A stretch of DNA of 63,509 bases, filler included, from Kipferlia bialata (lineage: Eukaryota), in NCBI GenBank assembly GCA_003568945.1. It is 4 parts of 4 records of this genome, joined end to end, with 100 filler letters (N's around TTAATTAATTAA, not from the genome) between each part and the next. Parts side by side here need not be neighbours in the genome. Positions count along the whole stretch, not along the records: positions 1 to 18,543 come from BDIP01000472.1; 3 more parts are not named here. One strand, written 5' to 3'. Shown one piece after another: positions 3,184-43,432 of this stretch; the stretch's first letter is position 1, and each line of letters starts with the position of its first letter. A program made the position numbers and the translations under genes. Under the pieces are notes generated by a model. It ran no database searches. It had not been told where the DNA came from and saw nothing but the letters and a program-made list of their open reading frames with translations.

Positions 3184-3219
<36 letters not shown>

Positions 3220-4140
3220 ATATTTACATATCTATATCCATACCTGACCCTGCCTCTGTCATGATGGGCACCACATAGTCAGAGCCACGGCCCTGGGGGT
3301 GAGGGCGTGATCACAAAGCAGTATCTATGAAAAGACTATTGTGTATAAATGTAATATTAAAATGATCGCACCTCCGTACTGTCTGGTACTCCCATAGTCC
3401 CTAGGAACAGTGTCTCTGGGTCATCTCCTCCACACTCATCAAGCAGGGTCTGTAGCAGTTCCTCCCTTGCGTGAGGAGAGCTGAGTGTGGTATAAAACAT
3501 TCAATATACACATAGTATATATCATACATACATACAATATAGTATATTCACATGCGGTACCTCCACGTGTATGGTATCTCCCCTGCTGCATCACCCCTGG
3601 CCTTGTCGGACTCGTGGTTGCCTAGGGGTTAAGAGGTTATACAAACATTCACATACATACTATAAATATATATACATATATATATATGTAGTGTGGTGCA
3701 TATCGATAATGGAATATATATAAGGAACTCACCGAATGTGACCATGTATGGCAGTCCCAGCTCCTGTGTGACATACTGGCACACACGCACATGACCTGTC
3801 TTGCACTGGGGGTGAGGGGAAGCACCGTACATAAACAAGTGTATATAACAAATACACACACACACACATACACACACATACATATAGATAGATAGATAAA
3901 GAGAGATAGAGAAAGAGATACACAGAGAGCCCTATGTATAGATGCAGCTTAGTAAGCCAGAATGACTACCTGAGTGGTGGTGGACCCTGTGTACACGTCA
4001 AAAGAGAGGGATAGAGAGAGAGTAAGAGATACCGGCACATATATATTCATATCAACAATAGATACACAGTACCTGAGTGGTGGTGGACCCTGTGTACACA
4101 TCCCCTGTCACCACAACCATGTCGGCATCATACATCTCAG
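721..4140 (-). CDS. Calcineurin-like metallophosphoesterase, Dcr2/plant PAP14-16-28-29 type, with C-terminal TM helix (about 14 exons; 5' end with DxH motif missing)
   Basis: The spliced exons give the family motifs in order: DMVVVTGDVY (4073-4140), LPYMVTF|GNHESD, LVWAFDTHSY..WGCLEHTQ|VSWV, SMGFMH|IPTAQW, GEDVCWSS, VLSVGH|DHLNNYC..LCY|AGKT..GARVFRL. The last exon 721-982 encodes hydrophobic ILYVSLVLVVAFSIVVSLI and ends in TAG. Intron phases are consistent. Confidence 0.88.
1432..1520 (-). repeat. 9-bp tandem repeat (CTGTACTGT) encoding (Asp-Ser-Thr)n inside a phosphoesterase exon
   Basis: About 9 imperfect copies; the ORF track reads TDSTDSTDSADITDSTDSTDSTDSTDST. Confidence 0.9.
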
Positions 4141-4712
4141 CTGGGGGTGAGGGAGGATATCAATAATGAATATATATACATATATATATTTAGGGAGAGA
4201 GAGAGAGAGAGAGAGAGAGACGGAATAATAATGTCACCACAACCATGTCGGCGTCATACATCTCAGCTGAGAGTGAAGGATAGTATATATATCAGAGAGA
4301 GAGGATGGGGAGGGGAAGAGTAAGGATATACTATCATACATCTCAGCTGGGGGTGAGGGATTTATCATATTATGGACAGAGAGGGAGAGAGGGAAGGGCA
4401 GAATGGAAGAAGGGAGGATACTATAACCATTAGTGTCTCGCCATCATACACCCCATCTTGTAATATAGAGAGACAGAGAGAAGGGTGTCATTATAGAGTG
4501 CAGGTATTATTTGGAATGAGAGAGAGAGTTGGGGAGGCGAACGGGGTAAGGGGGGGGGGGGGGGAAAGGGGGGGGGGGGGGGGGGACTCTTCCAAGAAAA
4601 GAAAGAATGGGAGGGTGAGGAATACTTCAGATAAACAGAGAGAGATAGAGAGACATTGAGAGGTAACTGCACGGGGAGACACTGCTATACATATATACAT
4701 ATATATATATAC

Positions 4713-5559
4713 CTGGGCTAGGGGGTGCATCTGGGGCACCAACACCTGGGGACATGCATGCCTCAGACACCTCTGGGGGGTGAGGGGAGGACGCGCACAG
4801 ATATACACATTCCCCACTATATAACATGGATACAATACCTCTGCTGATGGGCTCTATGGGCATCTCCCCGTTCTTGACCGCCTCCTCCTGCTCTCTCTTC
4901 TCTCTCTCTGCCTCTCTGTCCCTCTCAATCTCAGCAGCTATCACCTGGTCCACTACTCCTAGAGTTAGAGGTACTATCAGTACTATTGATATATCCAATG
5001 TGTACTATGACATATAATGTGTACATGTCCCGCTCAATCTCAGCAGCTATCACCTGGTCAACAACGCCTGCAGCGTCAGTACTCTCATTAATAGCACTCT
5101 ACATCCTAGACAAATGACTAATATATGGGAATATGAGTGTATACGTACCTGTCTCTGCCATCTCGAGGTATATACACTATGCTATTTATAGTGTGTATAC
5201 TATGAACGCTATCATTTATATATACTAATATACTGTACCCTACCTGTCTCTGCCATCTCGATGTATGCCGGGTGTCTGACCACATCCCTCATGTCACCCT
5301 CAACCACGTTGGAGGGCCTGAGGGTTAGTAGCATTAAGGTATATGTATATGTAGCTATACTAGTGTACACATATCCATAGATTAGTGTGATATAGAAACA
5401 TTTCCCTCATATCACCCTCTACCACATTGGAGGGCCTAGGATAAGGAATACATGTGACCACTCAAGACACAATATGTATAAATGTACTACTTGTATACCA
5501 TACCTAGACTGCCTGCCCTTCTTGAGCACTGGCTTCGGTGCATGGGCAGGGGGCAGGGG

Positions 5560-5597
<38 letters not shown>

Positions 5598-8500
5598 ATA
5601 TAAATATACACATATACCTTGACTGCCTGCCCTTCTTGAGCACTGGCTTGGGTGCATGGACAGGGGTATGTATATATATATATATATACTATACTAATGG
5701 TATACCTAGATTGTCTGCCCTTCTTGAGCACTGGCTTCGGTGCATGGGCAGGGGGCAGGGGGAGGTGGAGCCTCACCCAGTGCCTCTTGGACAGGAACAC
5801 GGTCTCACGCACAAGGGACCTGGAGGTAAGGACTGAACATACATATACATGTATGTATATACACATAGTCACGCACAAGGAACCGGGAAGTTAGATATAT
5901 GTTCAAATATGTATATATATATATATACCTTAACCTCTCTGGCTCTGCGTTGATCTCCTGCACTGTCTCTGTTCTGAGTGACACAGTGGGGGGTGCGGCA
6001 AGCATGTCAGGAGGGGGATCCAGGGACCTAGGGGTAAGGGAGAGAGGAAGGGGAAGAGAGTGAGGGGAGAGCATGTCGGGAGGTGGGTCCAGGGACCTGG
6101 GTTCTTCAAGCTATATGTACGACTATTCAATATACACACACCTTGCCCTCAGCAGCAGGCACCCGAGTGTCTCCATGGGCCAGTTGTGGTCACGGTCGGC
6201 CTGGGTCACCTGGGGGTGAGGGGGTGTAGATACATAGACACAATGAGTATACATAGTACTGTATACACATTCAGCACAATAGCACTCACCGCCCTATCAT
6301 TATTGCAGTCATCAGTATATATATGCGTATATAGTTGTGTACATACCGCCCTGTCATTGTTGTAGTCGAATGTCCAGTGTGTATAGAAATACGAATCTCT
6401 ATATTCATATATAATGTATATAGAATATATAATATATATAATGTATATATATTATACTACTAATACTCACCGCCCTGTCATTGTTGTAGTCGATGTCCAG
6501 AGGCACTGTGGGCAGAGTGACACCCAGCAGAAGGTGGGTGCACACATAGGACACAGCGTATCTGGCAGTAAGCATATATGTATATATACAATAGAGTATA
6601 TATATATATATGTGTATATATATAGATATATATTCATATACAAGAGTGACACCCAGCAGAAGGTGGGTGCACACATAGGAGACAGCATATCTAGGGTGAG
6701 CATATATGTATATATTTATATATATACATCTGGATTGACCACATACCTGACACTCCCACAGTTGTGCCTGGCTACACAAGTACATGTGGAAGAGAGTGAG
6801 GGTACGAATATATGATGGAATACCATACATGACACTCCCACAGTAGTCTGGTTTAAATACAAATATTTTATATACCATACCTGACACTCCCACAGTTGTG
6901 CCTGGCCACATATGCTGCATACATGGACAGGAATGTGATGGGGGGCATGTGGCCTAGGAGGGCTAGGCACTGAGGTTAGAGTGAGACATATAGAGAGAGG
7001 GTAGAGAGAGAGAGAGAGAGGTGGGGGCCAAAGATGCTTATGTACTAAAGTGGTAGGTACAATGATACGCCTGATATATATATATTGGAATATTGACAAA
7101 TACACTGCATACCTGGTATATGGGGTGCACTGAGAGTGCCCCCTTGATATATATGAATATTTATAAATATTTATATTAATTATAATATAATATACAATTA
7201 CTACAATAGTTTACAAATAAATATATATAATTAGTATGCATAATACCTGGTATATGGGGTGCACTGAGAGTGCCCCCTTGAGGGCCAGGTCAAGGGCATG
7301 CTTCCTATCCTCTCCTTCTCCGTCTCCCTCTGTCTCAGTCTCCACACCAGGTGGTTCCATCAGGGAGGCATTGCTGCCAAACAGCACAGACAGAAGAGAG
7401 TCGTCACCTAGAGTAAGGTCCTGGGACTCCTCGCCCTCAGAGGCACTGGGGTGAGTGTATATAGATAGTAATATATATATACACACCACTCAATCGTTGA
7501 CACATGTTGTGTATATGTAGATATACCTCTCCTCACCCTCAGAGGCACTGGGGTGAGTATAAATTGCAACACACTACTCAAATGTCCACATATATATAAT
7601 AATACAAATACTAACGTGTGTGTGTGTAATAGTACAATACCTCTCCTCGTCCTCTGGCTGTATGAGCTGGGCACTGGGCACATGTATATATATACACAAC
7701 AATATACAGTATGTATATATAGTAGTACCTCTCCTCATCCTCTGGCTGTATGAGCTGGGATGGGCTGAGTATGAGGGTGGGCAGAGGGAAGGGCCGGGTG
7801 GTCAGGTGCCGGAGGCCACGGACCTGGGGTGAGGGTACTGATACAAATATATCACTTATGTATAAATACATATATATACTCACCTCTGACACCAGGTGTA
7901 AGGTGCTGTTATGCAGTCTGACAACAAATTTTCAAATGTATATAAGACTTATATATACATATATGCATATACCTCTGACACCAGGTGTATGGTGCTGTTC
8001 TGCAGTCTGAGGAATGCAGCCAGCAGTGCATCATGGCCCCTCTTGGACTGACACATCATGGACTGGTCGCCCTATGATAAGTCTATCTATATTAATATGT
8101 AAATATATATATGTATGTATATATATATAGAGAGAGAGACACTCTTGGACTGGCACATCATGGACTGATCACCCTAATAATTGGGATATATACGTATACA
8201 TATAAGACATCATGGACTGGTCGCCCTGAGGGTTAAGTATAAGAGTGATATGTATATGGGGGGGGGGGTAATACTGATTACGTAACTCAGAGATATGAGT
8301 AACTACCTGTGTCTTTGGCGCCTTCTGAGTCTTCTGCCCCTTCTTGGCCTTGCCACCCTTCTTGGGGGTGTTCTCGGTCTTGGCTGGGGTTAAGGATACA
8401 TATAGTACAAATACACATATAGTATATATCCATATGCACCCACCCTTGGCTGCCTTGGGGTCGTTGAGTTCCATGATGCTCTTGTCCACCAGACGCTGCA

Positions 8501-10159
8501 TGTACCTAAGGGGTGAGAGGGGCATATTCTATACAATCGTCAATGCATAGATGGATACATAGTACAAGGGTGAGTGTATGCATACTATGTACATTCGCTA
8601 CATTCGCTACATTCGCTACATTCGCTACATTGAAGAATACAATAATATCCTCACAAACCTCTCGGCGCTGTCCCTCTCCTTGACAATCATGCGCACAGAG
8701 GCAATGCCCTGGGGGTCAGAACACTAAGAAATCAAACACATTACTATTAAGATACTAGGGTATACACACACACACATATATATATATATATCCTAGTAGG
8801 GTATGGGCACTGAGGAAATGCCCTGGGGGTCAGACCACTTAGAGCACCACTATATATATACACAACTATCGCTCTACCAAACCACCCTCTATATCAATCA
8901 ACAAATGTATGAACTCACCGAGGCCAGCTTCCTGAGTCTCTTGAGGTATGGTAGAGCAGCATATATTCATCTGGATGTATATGTATATATGTATGCATAT
9001 ATATATATATCTACTCACCGAGGCCAGCTTCCTGAGTCTGTTGAGGTAGAGCAGTGCTGTCTGGGGCTTGGACAGCATGGAGAGAACACACTCCCGCTCG
9101 ACATCGGGGAATCTAGGGTAAGAGGTAGAGTACATATATAGAGGGAGGGGGGCATGTAGAATAGAATAGAAAGAATGGAGAGGACACACTCCCTATGGAC
9201 ATCGGGGAACCTGATGGATAAGAGAGAGAGATTCATCAGTATAAAGGCACGACACACTCCCAAGTATATATAACATACCCTAGGATATCCCAGAGTCTCT
9301 TTATGGATGCCACTGTCCTGGCCAGTGGATACATTGTATATATGTATATAGTACATGTATATATATAGTATATACATACCCCAGTATGTCCCACAGTCTC
9401 TTGATGGATGCCACTGTTCTGGCCAAGGTATATATATTGTATATATATATATATATATAGAAGAGTATACATAGTATATACTATATACAGTGATATATAT
9501 AAACACACCCTAATATGTCCCACAGTCTCTTGATGGATGCCACTGTCCTGGCGAGAGGTGAGACAGCACGCATCTGGAGGGTGCCACCCTGTCTGGAGCT
9601 AGAGGTTAGAGAGGTATATATATAAACAGAGACAGAGAACAACGGGTAATACATATGCAGGGTGAGAGTAACATGTATAGGGAGGGTACCACCCTGTCAG
9701 GAGCTGGGTCAGCATATTAATATATATATACTTGAGAGAGAGAGGGAGAGAGAATATGTCAAGAGATGGTCACCATACCTGGCCCTGGTTGCTCTGCCAC
9801 TGACAGGTCTGTTGGCAGTGATATAATACCATATATATGAAAACTCTACATTATACTTTACATATACTATAATGTAATATACCTGGCCCTGGTTGCCCTC
9901 CCGCTGACAGGTCTGTTGGCAGTACGAGAACTGGCACGGGAGGTGGATCTGAATGGTGAATATATAGAGAGCACACACATATATATGTATATACATAGAT
10001 ATAGATCACCTGAATGGAGTTGTGACGTGGTCCCTGACCGATGACCCCACCAGCTGTGTGTCCTGTCTCTCTCTCTCCCCCTGCCGCTTCTGCTTGCCAG
10101 AGGCGTTGAGGGCACTGCGGGGGACGTGATAGTCTCTGAGGTGAGAAATAGATGAAAAC

Positions 10160-10193
<34 letters not shown>

Positions 10194-10248
10194 CAGAGGC
10201 ATTGAGGGCACTGCGGGGGACATGATAGTCCCTGATATTAGTTGCAGT

Positions 10249-10289
<41 letters not shown>

Positions 10290-10724
10290 ACAGAGGCATT
10301 GAGGGCACTCCTAGGCACGTGGTAGTCCCTGAGGGTAGTTGCAGATATATACAAATATATATATGAATACATATGTATACAGAGGGTGTGTAGGTGTATA
10401 TATATATACCCACCGTGTGTGCTTCATGCTGCCGCGAGGTCTGCCCCCTATATATACACATATATGATACACAATTAATGTATATATACCCTTACTAATC
10501 CCTGTACCTTGTGTGCTTCATGCTGCTGAGGGGTCTGGCCCCTGTCCCGGCCTGGGACCTGGCACCGGACCTGGTCCTGGACGAGGCACGGTCCCTGGGG
10601 TTAGTGTCAATGTATAGTATATACGTATGGAATAATACAGAAAGCGAACATCTGAAATATATAGAGACAGAGAGTTCTATGACCGAGGAGGCACGGTCCC
10701 TAAAGGTAAGTGTCAATGTATATT

Positions 10725-10769
<45 letters not shown>

Positions 10770-11864
10770 TACACTGCCCTGGTCCTGGAGGAGGCACGGT
10801 CCCTGGGGGTTAGACATGTATGTATACATGTTACCGATTATATATATATATATATATATATACCTAAACACTAGATCAGTAGCACAGGCCTAGTATGTAT
10901 ATATCGTGTACACTACCTCATAGTGAGTGATGCCGCCATGCTTGGCTTGACATTCCCTCTCTTGACAGGGGTATCAGTCACACCTCGGATGGGGACAGGG
11001 ACATCGCCAATGCGCCTGGCATTGGGGATATAATAGAACAGAGATAGAGTGTGTGAGTGAGAGAGGGAGTCATTGAGAGAGAAAGAAGGGTACCAATGTC
11101 ATCTTATCAACATGGATGCAAAACACAGGTCATAGGAGGGATACAGATACTGAGGAATGATATATAAAGACAGGGATGTGTCACTGACTTAGGAAGACTA
11201 GTATATGGGATATGTAGGGGTACGGTAAGGGGAAGAGACCCCCATGTAACAATGATACATGTGCTTGTTAAGTACAAATACATATCATCACATATTCACA
11301 AAGGCACTAAAGAATTGCACACAATAGGAAGTAGCTATGAATGTAGTCAGTGTGGAGTGTCATTGCACAGTACCCATACCTATCAAACACCAACAGAGAT
11401 GCCGGAATGTCCACTGGCCCAGGCACAGCCTCCAGCTGGTCATGCACCTCTCTCTCCATCTCCCTCTCCCTCTCCCTCTCGGGTCCCACCAGCCCCAGGG
11501 GGTTGGGGTCGTGTGCCCTGCGTGCTGACCGGGTCCCTGGCCTCCCACTCCGGCCCCTCTCCCTCCTCTCTATGGCACCCACTCTCCCTCTGTCTCTCCT
11601 GGTGCCTCCCCTGGTCACGGGTCTGCCCCCACGTCCAGTGGAGGTACCAGTCGCACCAGAGCGTGTCCTAGGGCGCCCTCCCCGGCCCCTGCTTGCCTTC
11701 CTGCTGCTCCTGCTCCCCTTCCTGGCAAAGAAGTCGGCCAGGGCAGGGTCACGCTTGGGGTTGTACTGCACAAGCCGGTCAGTCACCTTGACAGAGTTGT
11801 CAAAGCCAGCCTCACGGGCCGCTATGGTGTCTATGTACGCCTCATAACTGCGGGCACGCGACAT
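4713..11864 (-). CDS. Hypothetical protein, about 19 exons, Arg/Gly/Ser-rich N-terminus followed by a helical region; 3' end not found
   Basis: ATG at 11864 (MSRARSYEAYID...), first exon 11380-11864. A phase-consistent exon chain follows, e.g. LARTVASIKRLWDILG|FPDVERECVLSML, SLVRETVFLSKRHWVRL, GVVDQVIAAEIERD, EVSEACMSPG (4713-4772). The LWDILGFPDVER segment loosely recalls CCDC87/MAP65-type helices (weak). Confidence 0.75.
8590..8630. repeat. 9-bp tandem repeat ACATTCGCT x4 (intronic)
   Basis: Directly visible in the sequence. Confidence 0.85.
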
Positions 11865-12200
11865 ACGAGCGAAAAAGTGGCTCGGAAATGAAAGTGTGCT
11901 CACAGCTGTTCGGTAGGAACCTCTACCGCTACCAGTCGGTCAAAGACGACGATTAGCCCGCACTGGTGTGTTACCACGCAGAACTAGGCTCCCCTGACTC
12001 CGGTATGGCCTGAAAGGAAGGACCAAAATCTGATACTGAATTTATGAAATCGGACCCTTGCTGGTCTGCTTTTCCATTCACTCTCCCCCTCTCTCTCTCT
12101 CTCACTCTCTCTCACACACTATCCTTCCTCCTACTGACACTGGCGTCCTCACAAGTGCATAGGTGGAAGTGACATAAATGTGGTCTCCCTCTCACCCCAG
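11865..12200. promoter_or_regulatory. Short head-to-head intergenic region, probable bidirectional promoter
   Basis: A minus-strand ATG at 11864 and the first clear plus-strand exon at 12201 are under 340 bp apart. The start exon of the plus gene is not resolved. Confidence 0.4.
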
Positions 12201-12820
12201 GCATCCCTCACTGCACTGGAGTCCAAGCACGCCAGTCTCAATGAGAGGTATCACGCATGTGTATAATGTCATCAATGAGTGCACTCATATATGTATTCAT
12301 TTGTATGTGTATTCACTCTAGTATTAGTATTTGTTTACCACATGCACCAAGATGGTTATGTGTATAGAAGGACATATAGTGTTACCCTTCTCTGTGTGGA
12401 CTCCGGTGTCCTGTGTGAGACTTCATACTCTGCCACTCTTATATTTTATTGTACTGACCATAGATACTCTGGTGTCCTGTCTGAGCTGACTGGCAAGTAC
12501 ATGCTCTCATATACTTCTCTATAGACTCTATCTACGTTATATATATGTGTATATTCTCTACCTCTATCTTACCTCAGATACTCCGGTGTCCTGTCCGAGC
12601 TGACTGGCATGAGGGCAGAGTGGGACCAGAGGGAGAAGGAGGCACAGAGGTATGTACATATATATGTATATGTATATATAGTGATGTAGTATGTATAGTA
12701 TTTATATATATATTTGTGTGGCATGATGGAGAAGGAGGCACAGAGGTATGTATCTATATGTATATATATATATAGAGAGAGAGAGAGAGGGAGAGAGAGA
12801 GAGATATGTAGTATGTATAG

Positions 12821-12862
<42 letters not shown>

Positions 12863-14002
12863 GTGCATAGTGGGACCAGAGGGAGAGGGCACGGACTAAC
12901 ATAAATATACTGACCCCCAGCAATGCCCGTGCCCTCCAACAGCTCAAGAGGGAGAACGAGGATTTGAAGAAGAGGTATATATCAACATTACCTACACTAT
13001 TAGTGCTAGATATTAAGTATATGTTATATTCGTACAGCATATCACATATTTGTCCTATGCATATTGTCTCACCGCAGGGTGGCTGATAGCAAGGAGTACA
13101 CTCGCAAGCTACAGGCAAAGGTCCAGGGTGAGTGTTTGTGTGTATATTTTGTGCCAACAGAGTGGCATGACTCCCTCTCTTTCTCTCTATCCATATAGAT
13201 AGATTGATACCCTAACCCCCTAGTCCGTGCCCAGCCGAAAGGCATGGCAGACATCTCTCTCCCTCTATTCCTCTCTCTCTCTATATATATATACATGTAT
13301 ATATAAATCACTAACCCCCTAGTCCGTGCCCAACACAGTGGCGTGGCAGACCTCTCTCTCTCTATTTGAATGTAGTGTTACGTATACATATGTATACTAT
13401 GTATATGTTATATATATATATCACTAACCCCCTAGTCCGTGCCCAGCAGAGTGGCATGGCTGACCTCCTTGGCAAGATGCAGCAGCTGCAGAACGATAAC
13501 CAGGTGGGGACAAGATAACACATCACAATGCTTGATATTTAGTGCTGGTCTGTCATATATTTCTTTTGCATATTACTATAACTACTATTTCTACTTTATA
13601 TATTACACGATATACTGTGATATATACTCACCTCCATATACCCATCCTTAGGCCAAGGACGACATCCTGGAGTCACTCACTCGCATACTTCTCATTTAAT
13701 TATAATATGATATATATAGTATTTTTCTACTATTATTCCTGACCCCTTGGCCAAGGACGACATCACTTGATATGTACGATATATTATTCATTCTTGTAAT
13801 ACCCGATTATTCCCGAGTTGTATATTCTAATGTCCAGGCCAAGGACGACATCATCCTGGACCTTTAGATACTGTTGTTATCACCCATATTTACTTCTTAT
13901 TGTATGAATCACTTACCCCTAGGCCAAGGACGACATCATCCTCGAGGTGTAAGTATTATATGCTTGGCACTCAATTTCTATCATTATGTATATATATTAT
14001 AT

Positions 14003-14036
<34 letters not shown>

Positions 14037-14239
14037 TTATACTAATGTCCAGGCCAAGGACGACATCATTCTGGAGCAGGAGGACGAGGTGACAGACCTC
14101 AAGGCAGAGCTCACGGCACTGGCCAACGCACTTAGCAACACTGGTTAGTACATTTGTATATATATGGTTTCTATGTATATATATACACCTCAAGGCAGAG
14201 CTCACGGCACTGGCCAACGCTCTATCAAACACAGGTCAG

Positions 14240-14272
<33 letters not shown>

Positions 14273-15407
14273 GCATGTAGTTTCTATGTATATATATATG
14301 CCTCGAGGCAGAGCTCACGGCACTGGCCAACGCTCTTAGTAACACAGGTTAGCACACATTTCTCTCTCGCTCGCTCTCCGTCTCTCTTTCTCTATTGATT
14401 CGTCTTCTCACTCTTTTCAGAGGCCAATATGGGTCTCTCTGCCCCTCGGTCCCCCATGTCACCTTTCTCTCTATCTCTTTCTCTCTCTCTCCCAATATAT
14501 ATAGATAGATAGATGTCCAATGCCATACCTAACTCCGCAGAAGCTAACATGGGTCTCTCTGCCCCTAGATCCCCCATGTCCCCTGGGGCAGCCAGGCAGT
14601 ATCTGGAGCAGAGTCTCCTTCACAAGTGAGTGTAATGAATGTATATATATATATTAGTATTTATATGTGTATATGTATATATATGAGTACATATCTATGT
14701 ATGTCCACTGGGGCAGCCAGACAGTGTCTGGAGCAGAGTCTGCTGCACAAGTGAGTGTATTATATATATGCACACATTCATATGTATGTATGTGTGCATG
14801 TGTATATGTATGCATTCGTATACATTCTTGATACTCATCCCAGGCTCTCTGTTGCCAACCACTCTCTGGAGAGCATGCGTCTGCAGCTCACAGAGTCAGA
14901 CAGACAGGTATATGCTCTTATATTCTCTCACATTATTATATGATATATACAAGTATACATATATATGTGTATATATGTCATATACATTCAGCTCGCAGAG
15001 TCAGACAGACAGGTGTGTGGATATAGATAGGTAGATAGATGTATTGATACTGACACTAATAGTAAATGAATACGAAGCTATCTCACCCCAGCTGGAGCAG
15101 TCCAAGAGCCGCTACCAGGCCATCAGGGCAGAGTTCCAGGTACATGGAGTGTCTCATTATTTATACATGTATATTATATATATATATATATGTACACTGT
15201 ACATATATATATGTATATATATATATATATATGTGTGTATATATCTTCCAGGCAATCAGGGCAGAGTTCCAGGTATATATTTCAGTGTATATACAATTGT
15301 GTATAATGTGTATACAGTGATATATACACATTCCTACCCATCAGGACAATGCGGCTGACAGGGCCAAGGCCCAGTCCGAGAGGGACACAGCCATGTTCGA
15401 TCTCAGG

Positions 15408-15438
<31 letters not shown>

Positions 15439-17989
15439 CCTTTAGTTTCTTATAGTGGATAGCGGACTATATATGTATGCTGACACCAGCAATGCTCTGG
15501 AGGCTCTGGAGACCCTGGAGGCCGAGAGGGAGAGAGAGACTGCTGCCTGGGAGGAGGAGAGACAGGCTGAGAGGGAGGAGAGAGAGAGAGAGTTAGAGGA
15601 GGCCAGGCAGGAGAGAGAGGCAGAGGTAACGACCGCCATCTATATTGTGGAGTTCTATATAATCATTAACATGTAGATTGAGCAGCACTCCGAGCAGCGT
15701 CTGACTGATGCCGAGTCCCTGATCGCACAGGAGGAGGAGCTGGTGGCACTTAGAGCCAAGCTGGAGGTATATCAATGTATATTTTNNNNNNNNNNNNNNN
15801 NNNNNNNNNNNNNNNNNNNNNNNNNNNNNNNNNNNNNNNNNNNNNNNNNNNNGAGGGCTAAGCTAGAGGTGTAATATATATGATCAATATATAAGTATAT
15901 ATAGTGTATATATATATTCGTGTGATATATTTCTAAACATGAGGAGGAGCTGGTGGCACTTAGAGCCAAGCTAGAGGTATATATATACATACTCACATAT
16001 ACGTTCCGCTATATTATATACTCAGTCTTTTGTCCTAATAAGTGTTTAAGAATTGTACACAGCAACCTATTACCTTGTCCACCGAGGCTGCCCTGCCCTG
16101 TGCCCAGGAGGAGTGTGCATTCATATATATATATATATGAATATAGAGAGAGTTATATACATACATACATATACAGTTAACTCCTAGGATACCGAGGCTG
16201 CCCTCTCCTCTGCCCAGGAGGAGTGTGCCTCCCACAGACACACGGAGGAGACACAGACACAGCACCTGAAGGCAGCTAACGAGGTAGAGTATATATACAG
16301 TGTGACTGTATAAACATATATATACAGTGTGACTATATATAGAGAGAGTGGCATATGTATAGACACACGTAGGAAACACAGACACAGCGCCTGAAGGCTG
16401 CTAATGAGGTAGAGTATATATACTATAGCTACTTCTAGAGAGAGAGGGAGAGAACACCGCGGAGACACAGACACAGCACCTTAAGGCTGCTAATGAGGTG
16501 TACACTGTGTATAGACTATATGGATACTGTAAGTTAATATATGTCTATACTATGTCACTGACATACCTAGGCCCTCGAGGAGCGCCTTGTCCAGATGGAC
16601 GCTGAGCTGGAGGCCACGATGGGAGTACTCAAGGAGAATGAGGAGCAGGTATTGTATTATATAGTTGATGTTTATTAATAGAGAGAGAGAGAGAGAGAGT
16701 ATGAGGAGCAGGTATTGTATATGAATATATATGTAGGGTATTCTTCCTACCTTACCCCAGGGCCAGCGTGACCGTACTCAGTACGACAGTGACCTCAGGG
16801 CCTGTGAGGATGCCAGGGAGAGGGCTGTCGAGAAGGTTGCACACCTCGAGAATGAACTCGAGAAGACCAAGCAGAGGTATACATCTGATACTAATGTATA
16901 TTTTTATATTGTTAATCATTTATATTCTTTATACACTGATTTTTCTATTGATGTATCTATGATTGTTATTGCTCCTGGAGACAGAGCTAGAGAAGACAAA
17001 GCAGAGGTATATATATGTGTGTAAGTATATGGATATATGCCTCTTCTTACCCCAGACTGGGCCTCATGAGGCAGACACTGCTGCAGAGACTGAGGTCCAC
17101 AAAGCCTGCTACTGCTCCTAGGAGAGAGGCCACTCAGGTATAGTACAGTGAAAGATAGAATACAAAGGCTTTAGTATGTAAATTGTGGTGTATATATATT
17201 GTACTGAGTCTACTGCTGCTCCTAGGAGGGAGGCCACATTGGTTGGTATTCCCATTTGTTTAGGAAGTGTGTGACTCTCAGACGAGACTCCTGTATGCAT
17301 GAGTGTACATAATACTCCATCCAATTCTCACCCCTAGGCCCCTGCCCGCCAGTCTGCACCAGTGCAGTCACAGCCGAGGTAAATAGTAATATATATATTA
17401 TAGAAAGAGATATATATAGATAATACATTATGTTAGTGTATGTGCCAGTGCAGTCACAGCCAAGGTGGGTACCTCTATACGTATCTATATTTATTAATAC
17501 ATTTAGTAATATTGATACATATGCAGACTACGAAGTAGCATCTGTGCCTGTCCAGTTCCAGCCAAGGTGGGGTTATATGTAAATGTAAATATTCAGATAT
17601 ATTTGTGTTCCAGCGCACTGTACATACTGCTATGGTACACTATAGGTGTTCATATTAGTATTCTTACCCTAGGCCCAAGTCCCCTGTGACCACTGAGAGG
17701 GTGGTGCATGCCATAGACGCAGAGGGGGGAGACAGGTAGGGGTATTGGTCCCACCTCATATTCATTCTCTCTCTCTCTGCCTCTCTACATATACATATAT
17801 CGCTAACATCTAGGGAGGGTGTCCCCTATGAAATCATGGACTTTGACTTCTCTCTCTCTCTCTATATATATATACATACATGTCTTTAATCTTACCTCCA
17901 GAGAGGGTGTCCCGTATGAGATCATGGACTTTGACTTTGATGGAGACGACACAAACACAATGTCTCTCATGGACCTCGCCAGGGGATAA
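12201..17989 (+). CDS. Long coiled-coil protein (about 19 exons; start exon unresolved)
   Basis: Phase-consistent exons: ASLTALESKHASLNE, NARALQQLKRENEDLKK, AKDDIILEQEDEVTDLKAELTALANALSNT, NALEALETLEAERERE, ALEERLVQMDAELEAT. The last exon EGVPYEIMDFDFDGDDTNTMSLMDLARG ends at TAA 17987-17989. Confidence 0.82.
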
Positions 17990-18044: not shown

Positions 18045-18543
18045 GATAGAGAGCTCTCTATTGAGACTGGTTGCTGATCTCCATCTCCCCTCTCTCGTTT
18101 AGTGTTATGCACATGTGTCCTTGATGTGCAGTTGTACCACCATAAATATTAATACATACACAGTGGGTATTTGTATGCATTAGGTGTGTTGCACACCTTT
18201 TGACGAAAACAGTGGACAAACTCAAAAAGTTCTCAACCCTTTTTCAATTTGTCATTTGACACATATCTTGCCTGAATCTATGATAGCTTTTCTTCTCTCT
18301 CTTCTTCTATGACTGTCCCCACATCTATCTATATCACTGGTTCATATCGCCAATGCGGAACCTTATTGCTAGAATGAGGCTGAGGGCATGGTTTGGGAGC
18401 GAGTGGACAGCTCTGTTGTTGGTGGGACTAGGTATGATGATGCATTGTATGTACGTGGTATAGTGGAGGACATAACTGGCGATAGTGTCTGTGGAAGCAG
18501 GTGGGGGGGGGGGGGGGGGGAAAAACCCCCAAAAAATTTTTTC

Positions 18544-18642
18544 NNNNNNNNNNNNNNNNNNNNNNNNNNNNNNNNNNNNNNNNNNNNTTAATTAATTAAN
18601 NNNNNNNNNNNNNNNNNNNNNNNNNNNNNNNNNNNNNNNNNN
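18544..18642. other. Artificial contig linker (N run + TTAATTAATTAA + N run)
   Basis: Six-frame-stop spacer flanked by Ns, identical at three places in the window. Confidence 0.95.
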
Positions 18643-18687
18643 NTATACTACACAGTGCATACATACCATTCTTCTAATATGTGTATA

Positions 18688-20860
18688 CCTGCGTCCACTG
18701 CGTTGTGCCACTCACTGGCCAGGGGGCCCTTAAGTAGGTCACCGATGTTCCTGGGTGTTAGATATCCACCATTTCGGTGCAATACAATGGTGATAGTGTA
18801 TATCATTACTATCAATAGTGTACATGTAATGCAGGTGGGCCACTGAGGAGTGTACACCCAGCCCAGCATATACAGTCATACTTTAAATACTGTGACTGTG
18901 TAGGTATGTGTATATACCTTGCCCTCTTAAGCAACTCCACCACAGCCGAGTCTGCCCCATCTGCTGTGCATACATATAGTATACACACAATATATATACA
19001 CTCATAGTGTATACTATATATACGTACCTGGCTCTCTTTAGCAATTCCACCACAGCCGAGTCTGCCCCGTCTGCTGTGCATCTACCCAGTCGGTCGGGCT
19101 CATCCTCAGTGGAGCCTAGGTATCAGGATACAACGCATATATACAAGTAGTCGTTTTGAATGAGTGTATTGATACAATCCAAAGAACATGAGTATGAGTG
19201 GCACTGTTTCGCTGACTTCAATACAAGTAGATAGATAGTCAAGAGTACATTATTATAATCATATACCTAGTAACGATGTGAGTATGAGTGGCTCTGCCTT
19301 GCTTGCTGCCAGTTCACTCAGCCACTGCTCAATGCCCTCAGAGACACCTGGGGGAGTCAGTCACTAATCTAATGAAAACAGTCACTAATATAATGATTAC
19401 ATTCGCTCAGAGACACCTGAGGGTCAGTCACTAATCTAATGGATATATATATAAATATATAGCGCCGCTAGCTAATTGATACTGACACCAATCTACTGGA
19501 TTCTGACTTGGACCCATTGGGAACTAGACCAATTATAATGAGTGCGTTACGGATACCATCGTGTATTGTTACCTAGCCACACGTCAATGTCCAGTTCACT
19601 GGCATAGGTGGCCCCAGCAGGGCCATTCTGACAGGTAAGATAGTCTAGTACAGGAAACTCCATCAGCTAGCAAGAAGTGACATACCATAGGTGTGTATAC
19701 CTCTGTACTACGGATAGCGCATATAAACATGTATATATATGAATGTCTCTGGGCGCGCATACCTCTGTGTGTGATACCGCAGCCACTGTGGTTGCCTCAC
19801 TGCCCCTGACATTAAGGGTGTAGAGAGGGAATACAAAGGGTGTAGAGAGGAATATTGAGGCTATGCACAGAGAGGATGGACAAAGGTACATATACTAGTG
19901 TTGGAATGACCATAACAAGAGTTTAGATACCTATATATACATATACATATACCTAGATACATCTGAAAGTGTTGGTGGGAACTCCACTGTCTTCTGGTGG
20001 GCAGGGGCGGCCTGAGGTTAGTATATATACATAGAGAGAGAGAGAGAGAGATGGAGATGTAACTATATATATATATATAGAGAGAAAGGATACTGTCTTC
20101 TGGTGGGCAGGGGCGGCCTGGGGTCAGTGTATATGAATCTCCGTGTAGAGGAAGATAGAGAGGGAGAGAGAGGGATGCTCCAGTCTTCTGGTGGGCAGGC
20201 TTCATACAGGAAGACAGAGCGTATGTATCTAAGTAGTACCGTTGGAGACACGTGTGTACATAAATTCATGGATATATATATAATACATATGGAGAGAGAT
20301 AGACAGAAATATAGATGGTACCTTTGCAGTTGGTGACACTTGGGTGGACACGGGGACTGGGGTGAGTATAGAACTAGAATCAATCTCTGTATTTGTAGTA
20401 AGTACGTTGGAATAATCATGATCCATCGGCATAATGTACAATTAATGGGTATAGTACCTGGCGTGATGCGTCTCTTGGCCCCTGGGGTGGCACTAGTGCT
20501 CAGCTGGCTCTGGGGGTCAGGTACATACAACCCTATACGTTGTGACTGTACATATAGTATACATGTAAATATCAATACCTTAAGATCCAACAGAGAAGCT
20601 CTGAGAGCACTAATATCATACATTAATATCCACAAATATTTGCAAAGTATCATATAAAATACCTGCACATGCAGTGGCCAGAAGGGGACAGGTCACATAC
20701 ATACACACGCATATATATATATATATATATATATATACGTATATATGTATATATATATAAGTATACTAATACCTGCACGTGTAGGAGTGATGCCCTGACC
20801 GTGGCCAGAAGGGGACAGGTCACATGGAGCAGAGTGGCCTCGCTACATGGTTAGCTAGAT

Positions 20861-20898
<38 letters not shown>

Positions 20899-23800
20899 CA
20901 GGGTTATATAGAGGCAGGAGTAGAAAGAGATATCCACCCAGGTAATTCACCACACAATATCATTATATCTATATATACAAAGAGATATAGATAGGGATGG
21001 AGAGAAGGACACACTACCTAAACACCACGTTCTCACAGACCCTGGGCAGTGACACCCTGTTGACTAAAGGGTCTAGGTAGGCACGGTTGGTGTTTCTCTC
21101 ATAGGCACTGAGGACGGAGCCTATTGGTCAGAGTAACTAATATATCAATACACGTACATATGTGAGACAGTCCCCGAGGCATAACAAGTCACCTTGCAAA
21201 GTACCCTTTCTTAATACATATCCTCATCGCAACAATATTGTGGTCTTAAACAAGTGATTGAATAAACACTCAAAATATATATTCATATCAAAAACAGATT
21301 CATATACTAAGCAACGTGAACCTGTGACATCTCTCTCTGAACTCATATTACTTTTGTACACGTATTCCACTATACATAATGTATACGTATATTTAAACAA
21401 TTCTTGTACCTGTGACATCTCTCTTTGCACTGCTCCGTAAATTATTGATACCTAATGCTATACTTGCAGTAAGTATATATATACACTTAAAGTAAGTAAA
21501 TATATACACTGATATTGTACCTGTGACATCTCTCTTGGCACTGCTCTGGCCTAGAAGGGAGGTGCCCAGGCCTGGTGTGAATACAATATACACATGAAAA
21601 CTATATGCATATATATATAGAGAGAGAGAGAGAGGGAGAGAGAGGGAGACAGAGACAGACAGAGAGAGAGAGAGGTTGCAAAAGCAGGGAGGTGCCCAGG
21701 TCTGGCATTAGAGAGACACCAGTATTCATTAGTAGTAAATATACATATGTCTGCTGTGTAATGTTATATCTGTTAAACGAAGTACCTAGCCTAAGACTGT
21801 CAATCTCTGACAGTAGCACTGCATACTGGACCAGACAGGCACGGGAGGCACCCTGAAGTCATTGGATGGAGGTCATAAGATAAAGGATATGGAAATACTT
21901 ACAGTTATGAGTACTACAACTCTTGAATATGTAACATATAGAGTGACACACAACATAAATACACATATATACTACTACACATATACCTCCTTTGGGTCTC
22001 TCATGTACTCTGACAGGGCACCCAATATATAAACGTGCTATATATATATATATATACATATATATATAAATACTGAATACAGATCATATATTTCACTGAT
22101 ACCTCCTTTGGGTCTCTCATGTACTCTGACAGGGCACATATACATATACTAGTATACATATACATACATATATATTTACACATATACACAAATAAATATA
22201 TATATATATATATATATACGTATACTACTACACACCTCCTTTGGGTCTCTCATGTACTCTGACAGGGCACTCCTAGTGGACACCAGGATGGCCTAGAGTC
22301 ATGCATCAACAATAATTAAGTATCGTATACATAGAAGTGTTCTAACATGCATTGCACTTTAGATATACATATGACAGTGCACTCCTAGTGGAAACCAGGA
22401 TGGCCTAGAGTCAGACACCAAATACTAATTAAGTATAGTATATACATAGCAGTGTTCTAACATGCATTGCACAATATATATACATATGACAGTGCACTCC
22501 TAGTGGACACCAGGATGGCCTAGGAGTGAGATGCATAATATACTATGGTACTGTAAACATATATGGACTAATAAATATATACATAAGACAGGGCACTCCT
22601 AGAGGACACCAGGCCTGAGGGTAAGGATGTATACATATAGCTATACATCCTATGTATACATGAATACGTGATAAGGAGAATATGGCTTCCGGTGGTATTG
22701 GTTAGAGGGACACGATAACCTGTAGACACATTCATATACAAAATACTTCTAGTTGCACCTGCAGTGTTGGGGAAAAGGCCCTCACTCCAAGGGCCCTGTA
22801 CAGCTTGGTCAGGCTGGAGGTGAGAATACATTGATAGTATCAATATACTATAATAATATATTAATAGTAATAAGAGTATATATTAACATATATTAATAAG
22901 GGCCCTGTACAGCTTGGTCAGGCTGAGAGTGAGATACTAAAAGATATATCGTTTGGGTAGCGATATTGCTACTACCACATAATGTGTATTCAGCCCGAAA
23001 CAGTTTTGTCAGGCTGTTACAGTACCTCAGTAGGGCTATGGTGCTTGGGAACCTCATCAGCAGGGCATAGAGGGAGACAGGCAGGGCATCCTGGTCCTGA
23101 CTGAAGGCCTGATACAATGAGACTAATCTACTGGTACCAGAGAGGGAGTATATATACGAGTGTACATGTATACATGTGTATGTGTATACATGTATATATG
23201 TATATACTAATACACATACCTGCAGTGTGCAAGGAAGGGCTCTGAACTGGTCAGACCTAGCTGGGGGTCAGATGTAAACATGTACAAACATTTATGTAAA
23301 AGAGAAGAGTCAAGACTAATCCAACGATCCTGTACATGGTGCAACCATGGGTACACACATACGTATATTTCAATACATAAATACTCACTCTGTCTTGTGA
23401 CTAGTCCAATGATCCTGCACAGGATGCACCCGTGGATGAGGATGTACTGGCCAGTGCTGAGTGTAAGTGGTGTAAACACATATACCCAAAAATAAATGTG
23501 TATATATGTGTATATACAGAGATAGAGAGAGAGAGAGAGAGATGCACACGTGGATGAGGATGTACTGGCCAGTGCTGAGGTCAGCGGTATATAGATAGTA
23601 TAGGGGGGCAGATGGAGAGAGAGAGAGGATCAAAGGATGAGGATGTACTGGCCCAAGTGTTGAGGGATATATATATATATATATATATATATTCATATAT
23701 TCACATATATACCCACCCACCCACATACACACAAACACACATACATATAGATAGAGGGAGAGAAAACCAGGGATCAGAATCAACTGTGTGTTATACGTTC

Positions 23801-26071
23801 CGAAATTGCTTCTCCATCGTGCACCACCCCCATACACACTCAATTGAACATTTCCATAATAGTTGGTATGTAGTATGGTATGTAGTATGGTATGTAGTAT
23901 GGTTGAATGTAGAATGTGTGTCCATACCTAGAGTGCTCTGCCTCTGCCTGTTCCAGTGCCTGAGGTGAGATATGTGAACAAGACAATCCGATTACATATG
24001 AAATATCTGTCTATATATATACATACCAGTCCTCGGCTCCAGTGCCTGACGGTGGAAGACTACACTCATATGTACATAGTATATGAATGGTATATACCCT
24101 CAGTGAGATAATATGTATATACTATACCTGCACTAAACACGTGCACAACTGCACTGTGAGGTCTGATGCAAACCCCTGGTGCAGAGAGGGGGCCAGGCTG
24201 GATATGACACTGAAGAGCCTAGAAGTAAGTTGCAAACATTAGCTAGAGATGCTAAGAAGTAATATATCAATAGAATATGTACACTATTATACATTTGTGT
24301 CTAAATGTGTAATCATGTGGTAGAGAGGGTGCAAGGCTGGATAGGACACTAAAAAAACTGAGGAGTCAGTAAAATACTACTTAGAAGATTCACATAATAT
24401 ATGTACCTATCTGCCGCTGCATCCGTGGCACAGTGCCCATACTCATGTCTAGTGGGACCCATCAGACGCTCCTCCATCAACCTGATGTTAAGGGTGTAGA
24501 GGGAGAGAGAGAGAGAGAGAGAGATGAAGCTCCTCCACCAATATAGCAATAAGGGTGTAGAGGGGGAGAGAGAGAGAGGACTCCTCCATCAACCTGGCAA
24601 GAAGGGTGTAGAGGGAGAGAACCGTGGCGGTGCATCTCTGGATCCAAACAGTATCTATGTAACTGTATACACTCACCTCTTTCTCGACATGGCACTCTGG
24701 TCGATATACTCATTTCTATCTATAATACTAAATACTACTGAATACTACTAAATACTACTAAATACCACTGTATACACTCACCTCTTCCTCGACATGGCAC
24801 TCTGACCGCCCTCGCTGTCTGGTGGTCAATAAGAGTCAACAGGAGATATACATACTTGACAATGACAGGGCTGCCCTGTGCGTCTCTGCCACCAGTCTCT
24901 CTCTCTCTCCCTCTCTCTCTCTCTATATATATATATATACATACCTAGAAGTGATATGGCCGCCCTGTGTGTCTCTGCCACCAGTCTCTCTCTCTCTCTC
25001 TCTCTCTCTATGTGTATATATATATATAAATATACTTATATACCTAACAGTGATATGGCTGCCCTGTGTGTCTCTGCCACCAGTGTCTGTATCACGGCAT
25101 TGGACCACTGGAGAGTGTCCTAGATATTATGGGAGTGGAGAGAGAGAGAGAGAGAGAGAGGAGTAATGTTGTCAGTATATAGAGGGAAGAGAGAGAGAGA
25201 GGTAATGTTAGACCACTGGAGAGTATCCTAGAATATAGAGGGAAGAGGGAGAGAGCGGAAGTAAGATATACCTCATTAGTGGTAGAAGCACTATTGTATG
25301 AGTATAAAGATCCTAACCTGCATCTTGAGTCTCAGCAGGATGAGGGACCTCTTCTCAGGGTCCTGGGGGGTGAGTGACAATAATACATTCATGTATATAT
25401 GAATAATAATAATAATGTGTATATATATATATACACGTCTAAACCCTTCTCTGGTCCTGGTGAGTGAAATCTCCCATTGAACTACAAATGTGTATACCAT
25501 ATAGGTAGCAAAGAGACACAGTTATACCTCCATTCTGCATGCCCCAGCCACCAGTCTGACCTCACTGTCAAGGGCACGGGTCATCCTAGGGTAAGGGTAT
25601 ATATATATATACACCATATAGCACACGTCTACTATCACTCTATATATCTCTTTGACCCGACTGTCAAGGGTCATCATCGGGTGTTACGACCAAACACATA
25701 TACGATAATACTACTAATGAATTTGTATATTATAGATTTGTATATACATATGAATATAGACCTCACTGTCAATGGCACGCGTCACCAAGCGAGATAAGGC
25801 AAAGGGGAATACAAATATACATATATAGTGGAGTACATAGAATACACATTTATACAACGTCAAGGGAACGGGTCATGCCAGGGGGTTAGCACTCATCTGA
25901 ATTCAATTCACAAATATTCATTAGCCAGATATATATATACATATATATATTTATTCATATATCGCAAGTGAACTCTCTGTACCTAGGTAGGGTCGGCACT
26001 TGGTAGAACCTCCTCATATACATTACAAACCACGAAACAACAATAGTGAATATATAAGTTGTAGTTATACC

Positions 26072-26109
<38 letters not shown>

Positions 26110-28967
26110 ACTGTACCTAGGCAGGGTCGGCACTTGGTAGAAGCCCCTGTTGGACTTCCTCTCAGTGCCTGGGTCAGCATGACATCGATATACCAATACT
26201 ATATAGACATTTACACTACTATTACATACACATATACTATATATATGTAGATAGTACCTGTGCCCTGGAACGGGTGTATGATGGTGGGCAGGAGAGCACC
26301 GACAGGGGTGGCCTGGATTGTAAGAAGAGAAAGAGAGACAGAGAGAGAGAGAGTCCGGACAGGGGTGGAGTGGATTTTGAGAAGAGAGATAGACAAGGAG
26401 AGAGGGATGGACACAGATAGAGAGCGCCATCTGGGTGGGCAGAGAGAGAGAGAGAGAGTGCGGACACGACTGGTCTAACGGCAGGAGACACACACACTAT
26501 CTCTAAGTATAGCTAGGCCAGTGACTACTCTCTCCCCCCCTCTCTCTCCATATATATATACGTATTCATATATAGTTATATGTATACCTGCTCCTTACAC
26601 ACCCCAAGTGCTGTCTGGGCCAGTGACTGTGCAGTCTCAGAGGGGCAGATGACTAGATCAGTGTCTGTTATTAGTATTGTATATATTTAATATATACATA
26701 GAGAGAGAAAGAGATAGCAATATATGTATATATATATAGAGAGAGAGAGAGAGAAAGAGAGAAAGAGAGACTGTGCAGTCTCAGATAGAAATATGACAAG
26801 GTCGATACATACTGTAAGTAGTTGTATATTAATATAGAGAGAGAAAGAGTGTGGGAGAGTGAGTCCCACACTCTTCCAATGGACTAAAGAGTGGTTATAT
26901 AGAAACACTATATATACATATGGTGAAGTACCTGGAATGGGGCCACAGTAACTGGCGGCACACTCTCTTATAGCTGCACAATATTCAGTTATTGATAGAT
27001 ATAGATACACATACAAGTATATGGTATATATACATATGGTGAAGACCCTGGAATGGGGCCACTGAAACTGGCGGCACACCCTGCCAGTGCACACAGAGAA
27101 TAGATATAGATATATATGTACTAGTATATGGTATATATATATAGTATATAGTACCTGGAATAGGTCCTGAATAGCTAGCCGCACACCCTGCCAGTGCACA
27201 CAGGAAATATAGTAAGAGATACTTATAAAATATATATGTATATATATATATATAGTATATAGTACCTGGGATAGGACCACTGTAACTGGCGGCACACCCT
27301 GCCAGTGCACACAGACAGTGGAGAGGGAAGGGACAGAGGAACCTGAGTGAATTGGTGTAGGGGGAGAGGGGGGGAGAGAGGGTACACAGAATGTGCAGGG
27401 GGAAAGGACAGAGGAACCTAGGTATTAAGGGTGTAGAGGGAGAGAGAGAGAGAGGGGGGGGGGTACACAGACAGTGGAGGGGGAAGGGACAGAGGAACCT
27501 AGGTATTAGGGGTGTAGAGAGAGAGAGAGAGCACTGACGGTGTATAAGGAACGGCATCAGACTTAGAAAATGGATAGAGGATAGAGGTTGACAAAGAGAA
27601 CCCAAGTTGTAGTTGTGGGTGGTGTAGATATGAGTGAGTTACATACCAGCTGATGATGTGACCAAAGAGTACACCCACTGCCTCATGGGGTATGGGGGTG
27701 GGGGTGCTGGGTATGTCACTCTTGGGACCATTGTTACTGGGATGAGATTACTTAAATACATATATATATATGTACACTTATATATATATACACAAATGTA
27801 TATATGGGGGTGCTGGGTATGTCACCACCGCTGCCCTTGGGACCAGACATGCTGGGATGAGAATATACGTATACACATCCAACCTATTCAGCTATATTTA
27901 CATACCCAATTGGCATCATGCACCCAAAAATAGATGAATATTACAATTATACAATAAATACACACAGCGTCACAATATATGTATTGTTTGTCTTAACATA
28001 TATGAATTCATCCATACCCAAATGGCATCATGGACACACACACACACAAATATATATACATAATACCCCATAGATATAAATCTATATACATATATATCTA
28101 CATCCATACCCAATGGCATCATGGACACACATATATACCCATAATACCCCATATACATATATATATATATATATAAATGTAAATATACAAGTAGATATCC
28201 AAGTGTATATCCATACCCAAATGGCATCATGTATGAATACATATTCATATCTTCCCCATAGATATATATGTATACATACTAATTACACAACCCATACCCA
28301 AATGGCATCATGGACACATCCCCCAGTCCACCCACAAAGGACAGAGGGTCATCAGATGCAGTGGCCTGACATAAGGACCATTTATATGTATATACACATA
28401 TACTATATTATTATACAAAGGACAGGGGGTCATCGACAGGGGCAACAGTAGTCTGAGGTGAAAAGCACTATATATATCAATGTATACTGTATGATTATAT
28501 ATTCAAGCCCACAAAGGACAGAGGGTCATCAGAAGCAGTGGCCTGGTATTAGAACTGTAAATAGAAACTCTTAATATCTATATATTCATTTACATTGGTA
28601 TATACTGAATAGAGATAAAGAATAGTCCATCAGAAAGGACCGGGGGTCATCAGAATGCGGTGGGGGCCTGACATAAGCACGATACATCTACACTAAATAT
28701 GCGTGCAAATCACAACTTACGTTGAAGGGTGTAGTTTGGAAGTGGCTACACAAAGTATGATTATACATACGATTATATACTAAACATATACACTATAAGA
28801 GCAACATACTAATTCGTGAATATGTGTATAGTATTGAGTATACTGCATAATAACACACTATACTTACGTTGAAGGGTGCAGCTGGGAAGTGGCTGCTTGT
28901 GGTACTTGGTGTGATGTAGTCTCTGAGGAAGAGTTCCCTAAGGGCCTAGGGTGAGAGAGAGGGAGAC

Positions 28968-29001
<34 letters not shown>

Positions 29002-30367: not shown

Positions 30368-30422
<55 letters not shown>

Positions 30423-30908: not shown

Positions 30909-31008
30909 NNNNNNNNNNNNNNNNNNNNNNNNNNNNNNNNNNNNNNNNNNNNTTAATTAATTAANNNNNNNNNNNNNNNNNNNNNNNNNNNNNNNNNNNN
31001 NNNNNNNN
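30909..31008. other. Artificial contig linker
   Basis: N run + TTAATTAATTAA (30953-30964) + N run. Confidence 0.95.
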
Positions 31009-43306: not shown

Positions 43307-43377
43307 TGTATGTATTCAATTGTGTATGGTTAGTGATGATTATAGGGGGGGGGGGGGGGGGGGGAGGGAGGGGGGGG

Positions 43378-43432
<55 letters not shown>

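Follow-up and report, generated by a model that had tools for sequence, protein, structure and literature searches.

The intron at 14144-14540 of a modelled gene in Kipferlia bialata, a free-living fornicate flagellate, holds, between its outer GT and AG, additional splice sites embedded in copies of the adjoining exon edges, which we call echoes. The first-pass annotation had described a consistent order in this intron and at two further places, namely true donor, donor echoes, acceptor echoes and true acceptor, and had taken the order to imply exon definition or inside-out splicing. The locus raises the question of whether such nesting reflects how the transcript is spliced or how the DNA came about.

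Gene models and echo detection

All counts refer to a window of 63,509 nt of K. bialata DNA. The window consists of separate contigs joined by linkers (an N-run, TTAATTAATTAA and an N-run, at 18544-18643, 30909-31008 and 44917-45016), so sequences on the two sides of a linker are not linked. Exon chains were built with a self-trained gene finder that masked repeated exons, corrected by hand and verified to be stop-free, giving 118 modelled introns. When run unmasked, the finder took up echoes as micro-exons. The outer GT and AG were intact in all 118 introns after one donor had been reset, and one donor in the G10 model is uncertain. A general repeat search was dominated by TA tracts. For the echo search, each intron was aligned without gaps against both of its flanking exons at a score cut-off of 12, a level attained by unrelated exons in 1.9% of 472 trials. 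Matches scoring 10-11 were admitted only if they lay at an exon edge and had GT or AG in register. From 164 raw matches 157 were kept, the seven removed being distant from an exon edge or of low complexity. Splice sites were scored with matrices trained on echo-free sides. A protein search with exon 14053-14142 returned no public protein for the gene holding 14144-14540, and a search with one G2 exon gave no match. Pfam searches on 15 single exons put a name only to the helicase and WD40 genes.

Table 1. Coordinates of the modelled genes, exons, introns and echoes
Feature	Position	Strand	Description	Support
Coiled-coil-like gene holding the named intron	12201-17989	+	19 exons	modelled
Upstream exon of the named intron	14053-14143	+	30 codons, phase 0 to 1	stop-free 19-exon chain
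Named intron	14144-14540	+	397 nt, from the true GT donor at 14144 to the end of the true AG acceptor at 14540	frame test of pairings
Donor echo 1	14187-14236	+	copy of exon 14096-14143 plus GT 14235	4 synonymous, 0 nonsynonymous codon differences
Donor echo 2	14301-14349	+	copy of exon 14097-14143 plus GT 14348	3 synonymous, 1 nonsynonymous
Innermost GT-AG segment	14348-14420	+	73 nt, ordinary-intron-like
Acceptor echo	14419-14464	+	copy of exon 14541-14584, preceded by AG	4 synonymous, 0 nonsynonymous whole-codon differences
Downstream exon of the named intron	14541-14625	+		stop-free 19-exon chain
Intron cited as second example	58316-59075	-	760 nt; donor echoes end 58987, 58876, 58765; acceptor echoes start 58561, 58432	outer-pair junction peptide in public protein P0002
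Exon inside the span cited as one intron	27266-27342	-		acceptor copies 27498, 27417; donor echoes 27203, 26966
G2, echo-rich gene model	4713-11015	-	20 exons	54 synonymous and 20 nonsynonymous echo differences
G4, echo-rich gene model	18689-30597	-	two chains	exon chains and echo alignment
G7, echo-bearing gene model	45070-48583	+		intron 45706-46525 with one donor and four acceptor echoes
G10, echo-rich gene, KIPB_002720	55860-63451	-		544 identical residues, zero mismatches in aligned blocks

Prevalence, order and anatomy of the echoes

The five sites reported for the named intron (GT at 14144, 14235 and 14348, AG ending at 14420 and 14540) were found base for base. Each donor echo there reproduces the final 47-48 nt of the upstream exon and its GT, and the acceptor echo the AG and the opening 44 nt of the downstream exon; the true sites of the intron have lower scores than all three of their echo counterparts. 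The second example, 58316-59075, is nested as described, with three donor echoes followed by two acceptor echoes. The third, 26638-27646, is not one intron, as it holds the stop-free exon 27342-27266. Acceptor copies precede this exon and donor copies follow it, so that the claimed order fails across the span and holds within each of the two introns.

At least one echo is present in 81 of the 118 introns (donor side only in 28, acceptor side only in 30, both in 23). Donor copies precede acceptor copies in all 23 introns that carry both (P ~10^-10.5 under random order). Without filtering, 27 of 28 introns are nested, and the lone exception is a score-12 match 104 nt inside the exon that lacks an AG. 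Most echoes (143 of 157) come within 4 nt of the exon edge, and thus reproduce the exon-intron border inside the intron. GT or AG is retained in register in 125 echoes: of the edge-reaching ones, 61 of 70 on the donor side keep GT and 64 of 73 on the acceptor side keep AG. The retained sites score much like the true ones, 5.85 against 5.73 for donors (n=61) and 5.71 against 6.39 for acceptors (n=64), neither difference being significant. An intron may hold up to five copies of one exon edge, and its length grows by ~97 nt per echo (r=0.82). Units are spaced ~100 nt apart, a median of 27 nt being exon sequence and 70 nt intron stump. Echo units (157 x 97 nt) amount to about a quarter of the window. 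From the innermost donor to the innermost acceptor the median length is 92 nt, compared with 121 nt for echo-free introns. Among introns of the same genes, those with echoes do not differ in microsatellite content from those without (0.421 vs 0.416), so TA tracts alone are poor predictors of echoes.

The echo load is sharply uneven among genes. The WD40 gene at 31071-35635 (+) and the superfamily-1 helicase gene (AAA_11/AAA_12) at 37845-43285 (-) have no echo in 25 introns; both have long exons and short, GC-richer introns (median 79 nt). The helicase gene is KIPB_002715, with an exon 100% identical to the public protein.

Silent divergence between echo and exon

Across the 157 echoes, 369 of 1395 codons differ from the true exon, 215 synonymously and 154 nonsynonymously. 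The synonymous share is 58%, against a neutral expectation of 23% and values of 14% and 10% in the shifted frames, and third codon positions carry 250 of the 416 differences. The dN/dS between echo and exon is 0.20 (bootstrap CI 0.147-0.275), falling to 0.15 after two breakpoint codons were trimmed. A copy that was born identical and then decayed has a dN/dS floor of 0.5, because the exon changes only silently and the copy everywhere, and the observed value lies below it with p=3e-14. When identical birth and decay were simulated through a similar detector, the synonymous share stayed at or below 47% in 240 runs. The bias is also seen in G10 alone, where the public protein fixes the frame (39 synonymous vs 29 nonsynonymous, p=0.004), and among echoes compared with each other the synonymous share is still 44%. 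Differences occur at 159 of 745 fourfold sites and at 70 of 1395 second positions, so the ratio of the two rates exceeds 4.

Three-way comparison gave a star-like pattern, in which private synonymous changes number 20 in the true exon, 22 in the nearer echo and 24 in the farther one. For private amino-acid changes the numbers are 6 for the exon, against 17 and 24 for the two same-side echoes. Of the private changes of the nearer echo, 56% are synonymous, compared with the 23% predicted by serial duplication (p=7e-6). Arithmetic on these figures gives a silent divergence of about 0.2 when an echo arose, followed by decay of about 0.02-0.03 per site.

Between neighbouring units, the intron parts show an identity of 0.58, against 0.54 for unrelated flanks, and reach 0.8 in 4 of 131 comparisons; among the 33 comparisons in which the exon part is at least 95% identical, one has an intron part of 0.8 or more. 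Past 10-25 nt from the splice site, these intron parts barely exceed unrelated sequence. The donor echoes at 22137 and 22021 (-) are 35 nt each and identical to the exon end, and their intron flanks diverge from the third base, a clear case of separate histories of exon part and flank. Echoes contain 5 stops in all, and pN/pS is near 0.57 in those that have lost GT or AG and near 0.18 in those that have kept it. Judging from the stops, the out-of-frame offsets and the absent partner sites, the echoes are likely not coding at present. Conserved protein and splice signals together with diverged silent sites and unalignable introns is the appearance that two functional alleles or orthologs would have, and since the differences are mainly silent, the echoes are likely pieces of diverged alleles.

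Origin of the echoes

In the reading that we favour, and to which we give about an even chance, the echoes were copied from a diverged functional allele during the repair of intron breaks and are skipped by pairing across the exon. A break would occur in an AT-rich intron, and one broken end would be extended by copying the homologous chromosome, first its intron and then 20-50 nt of the conserved exon. The copied strand would then be end-joined to the uncut intron stump without annealing, leaving exon, donor, stump, echo and donor in series, with the mirror image at acceptors, and the echo would decay neutrally from then on. Because copying at the intron ends retains the stump, nesting would arise without any special order of splicing. 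The same process would account for the anchoring at exon edges, the unit size, the independence of the two ends, the unrelated flanks and the silent bias. Published observations provide some of the ingredients: k-mer peaks suggest that K. bialata is diploid (PMC5874029), fornicates are reported to lack NHEJ and Rad51A and to keep two Dmc1 (PMC8516963), Dmc1 is described as mismatch-tolerant (PMC8682777), and in C. elegans the end-joining of failed SDSA yields tandem duplications of ~100 bp and up (PMC8654963).

Several points count against allele copying. We found no second allele, haplotype or isolate: public proteins P0001 and P0002 form single-member clusters, and searches of metagenome contigs with P0002 and P0001 yielded no confirmed relative among 100 and 89 pattern matches, respectively. 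The published draft is described as having one host coverage peak and a size that agrees with the k-mer estimate (PMC5874029), which speaks against the presence in that strain of two deeply diverged haplotypes; the donor alleles must therefore be past or population-level ones. Moreover, each of up to five copies per intron needs a diverged source of its own, and the low pN/pS of site-keeping echoes also fits selection on a subset.

Such selection is central to an explanation that we consider unlikely, in which the echoes are old duplicates held under protein-level selection that sometimes replace the exon edge, either by DNA recombination or by an unknown RNA-level swap. The star-like silent divergence and the scrambled flanks fit it, as do the low pN/pS of site-keeping echoes, the 8 of 92 longer echoes with at least four silent and no amino-acid changes, and the slightly conservative nature of the amino-acid changes (BLOSUM -0.05 vs -0.44, p=0.02). 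However, stops occur near their neutral share (5 in 154 vs 4%), site-keeping echoes included, and one of the three indels is in frame. Loss of GT or AG is commoner in the innermost echoes (13/38 vs 5/38), the opposite of what collapse onto the inner copy would leave, and there is no enrichment for in-frame or micro-exon use. Frequent recombination would also be expected to wipe out the copies before they diverged. That the echoes are working spare parts, exchanged with exon edges in DNA or RNA so often that protein-level selection maintains the intronic copies, seems to us quite unlikely; if true, it would amount to an undescribed layer between gene and mRNA.

Ordinary mirage formation, that is, head-to-tail duplication of the resident border, neutral decay and selection against interleaved copies, predicts a dN/dS of at least 0.5 where 0.20 was observed, neutral private changes in the nearer echo where 56% were silent, and a ratio of fourfold to second-position differences of at most 2 where it exceeded 4. 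While it explains the anchoring and the order, has a precedent in the lancelet (PMC3087553) and is matched by the few units that share their intron part (4/131), and while slippage in TA-rich flanks could mask flank identity, we regard it as improbable.

Diverged haplotypes of a heterozygous sample, joined in tandem by the assembly, would likewise look allele-like, with silent-only differences and unrelated introns. The draft was built from short reads, and echoes flank N gaps at 15786 and 47415. Sequencing run X1, possibly the source sample, has a share of 0.93 and run X2 one of 0.20; neither is counted as evidence, and as breakpoint-crossing 31-mers make up only 8.7% of the stretch, the X1 value is compatible with chimeric joins. 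Nevertheless, up to five copies of one edge are more than two haplotypes could supply, the breakpoints join intron to mid-exon, a junction absent from any normal allele, and the matches are often shorter than 30 nt. The echo units fill about a quarter of the window, yet the draft size agrees with the k-mer estimate, and the WD40 and helicase genes (G5 and G6) are free of echoes throughout. An artefact of this kind appears rather implausible. Intron birth of the Rogers type, which leaves the copy of the downstream exon start first and that of the upstream exon end last, was rejected because the order is the opposite in 23/23 introns.

Splicing of echo-bearing introns

The claim that the outermost pair is joined despite equally good inner sites held up. 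Among the six single-splice pairings of the named intron, only 14144-14540 leaves the frame open. Compared with a model in which outer pairs are joined, KIPB_002720 agrees at 18 of 20 junctions, including 12 of 13 echo-bearing ones and 59075-58316 among them; the two misses are the uncertain G10 donor and one echo-free intron. The protein contains no duplicated peptide. As K. bialata gene models were predicted with transcriptome hints (PMC5874029), these junctions count as indirect support for outer-pair splicing. Based on frame logic and the predicted protein, the echoes are probably skipped during splicing.

The nested order itself does not carry the implication of a splicing route that had been drawn from it, since copies that arise at either intron end nest by geometry. 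Inside-out splicing is not supported as a general rule either. It depends on donors and acceptors occurring in matched numbers, and these are mostly unmatched: 58 of the 81 echo-bearing introns have echoes of one kind only, intact sites are equal in number in only 10 of 73 introns, and donor and acceptor echoes occur independently of each other (odds ratio 1.01). In the named intron, three donors face two acceptors, so one donor would be left over.

That inner pairs are spliced first, or that echoes serve as recursive steps, and that this explains the nested order, is in our judgement very unlikely. Intact inner pairs, 48-244 nt apart, do exist in 18 introns, and the inner sites are strong. 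Both donor echoes of the named intron end in CAG-GT, one of them passable as an acceptor (score 4.7). Against this, the numbers of donors and acceptors are unequal in 63/73 introns and the two kinds are independent, GT directly follows only 7 of 64 acceptor echoes, and the outer splice motifs are uninterrupted, so inner splicing is not required. At echo ends AG was gained three times and lost seven times. Their mean acceptor score is -2.8, compared with 7.8 for real acceptors, and only 9 of 61 score above 3, on which grounds recursive splicing was rejected. Occasional inner splicing of 14348-14420 is conceivable.

Two other uses of the echoes were discarded. As micro-exons, 106 of 125 have no partner site and 5 of 125 have an in-frame partner, which also speaks against tandem or alternative exon duplication. 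As in-frame alternative sites, 38 of 125 have an offset that is a multiple of three and 9 of 125 are open, with no enrichment.

Exon definition, the other proposal in the first-pass annotation, is a plausible candidate. True exons have a median of 78 nt and 57% GC, and would become ~198 nt long, with sequence of 30% GC included, if an echo site were used. Pairing across the short exon is a plausible fit to this geometry. In keeping with exon definition, the true donor would be whichever comes first downstream of the preceding acceptor, and the true acceptor whichever comes last ahead of the next donor.

Other features of the window

The motif CTCTACACCCTTA has 13 matches, against 0.18 expected, in unrelated introns (e.g. 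19813, 24489, 27426, 45051, 60270 and 63459), some of which are echo copies. It sits after a CT tract, usually just upstream of acceptors, and is possibly a shared branch-point module or a small mobile element. The exons at 2048-4140 (-) carry motifs that we take to recall a metallophosphoesterase, and Pfam gave no match for two of them. G7 presumably resembles a cyclic-nucleotide phosphodiesterase, judging by its motifs, and three of its exons had no Pfam match. The G7 exon near 47857, for which there is no good acceptor in frame, is perhaps damaged or wrongly assembled. Between two echo-rich genes lies an intron-free open frame of 210 codons (11310-11939, -), of which 11385-11858 had no match in Pfam. 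Long poly-G tracts (~4545-4585, 18500-18520, 30860-30900 and 43325-43430), often at contig ends, are possibly sequencing artefacts.

Implications

If the echoes were indeed copied from diverged alleles, the introns of Kipferlia would be an archive of past alleles, and their sequence would be evidence that deeply diverged homologs have recombined in this free-living metamonad. They would also display a visible repair scar in a lineage without NHEJ and Rad51A, and a route of intron growth of ~100 nt per event. Apart from this, the genome is rich in natural pairs in which a true and a false splice site have equal strength and near-identical exon context, and with these exon and intron definition become directly testable using existing types of RNA data. 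A survey of the K. bialata spliceosome reported 87 of 174 proteins and zero snRNA candidates (PMC6679479). Ab initio gene models can mistake echoes for micro-exons.

Comparison with known systems

Recursive splicing uses AG-GT ratchet points. Many Kipferlia donor echoes likewise read AG and then GT; unlike ratchet points, they inherit the AG from exon ends, and have not gained AG or acceptor strength. In fungal stwintrons, an intron-like segment also lies within an intron, and consecutive splicing is conceivable in both cases. However, the inner intron of a stwintron interrupts a splice motif of the outer one, which makes inner splicing obligatory (PMC5639578). A stwintron or other obligatory nested intron was rejected for Kipferlia, where the outer motifs are intact and matched inner pairs occur in only 10/73 introns. 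Intron gain of the Rogers type, mentioned in PMC3087553, resembles the echoes in that exon sequence is duplicated into an intron, there through duplication of an AG/GT site.

The scars of failed SDSA in C. elegans helq-1 are, like the echoes, local direct duplications of ~100 bp or more beside a break. The copy there is expected to match the original and may extend to 10 kb (PMC8654963), whereas Kipferlia units cluster near 100 nt and the copy was apparently diverged at birth.

The closest known structure is the lancelet mirage, known in Adh3, the globins BflGb6 and BflGb9, troponin C and PGBD5 (PMC3087553, PMC3902484). Both are intronic copies of exon-intron borders at either end of an intron, many with AG or GT kept, and of similar unit size; mirages are reportedly harmless to splicing (PMC3087553, PMC3902484). 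Lancelet mirages are, however, minisatellite-like arrays at few loci, with whole units 81-100% identical (PMC3087553, PMC3902484). In Kipferlia, by contrast, 81 of 118 introns are affected, often at both ends of one intron, the intron part is nearly unrelated and the differences in the exon part are mostly silent. The echoes therefore share with mirages the copied border and lack the head-to-tail similarity of whole units. Our literature search, which covered few subscription papers, found no description of this feature in Kipferlia, and the available text of the Kipferlia genome paper gives only a number for introns. Taken all together, what is new here is the prevalence of the echoes, in 81/118 introns, and their silent-site signature.
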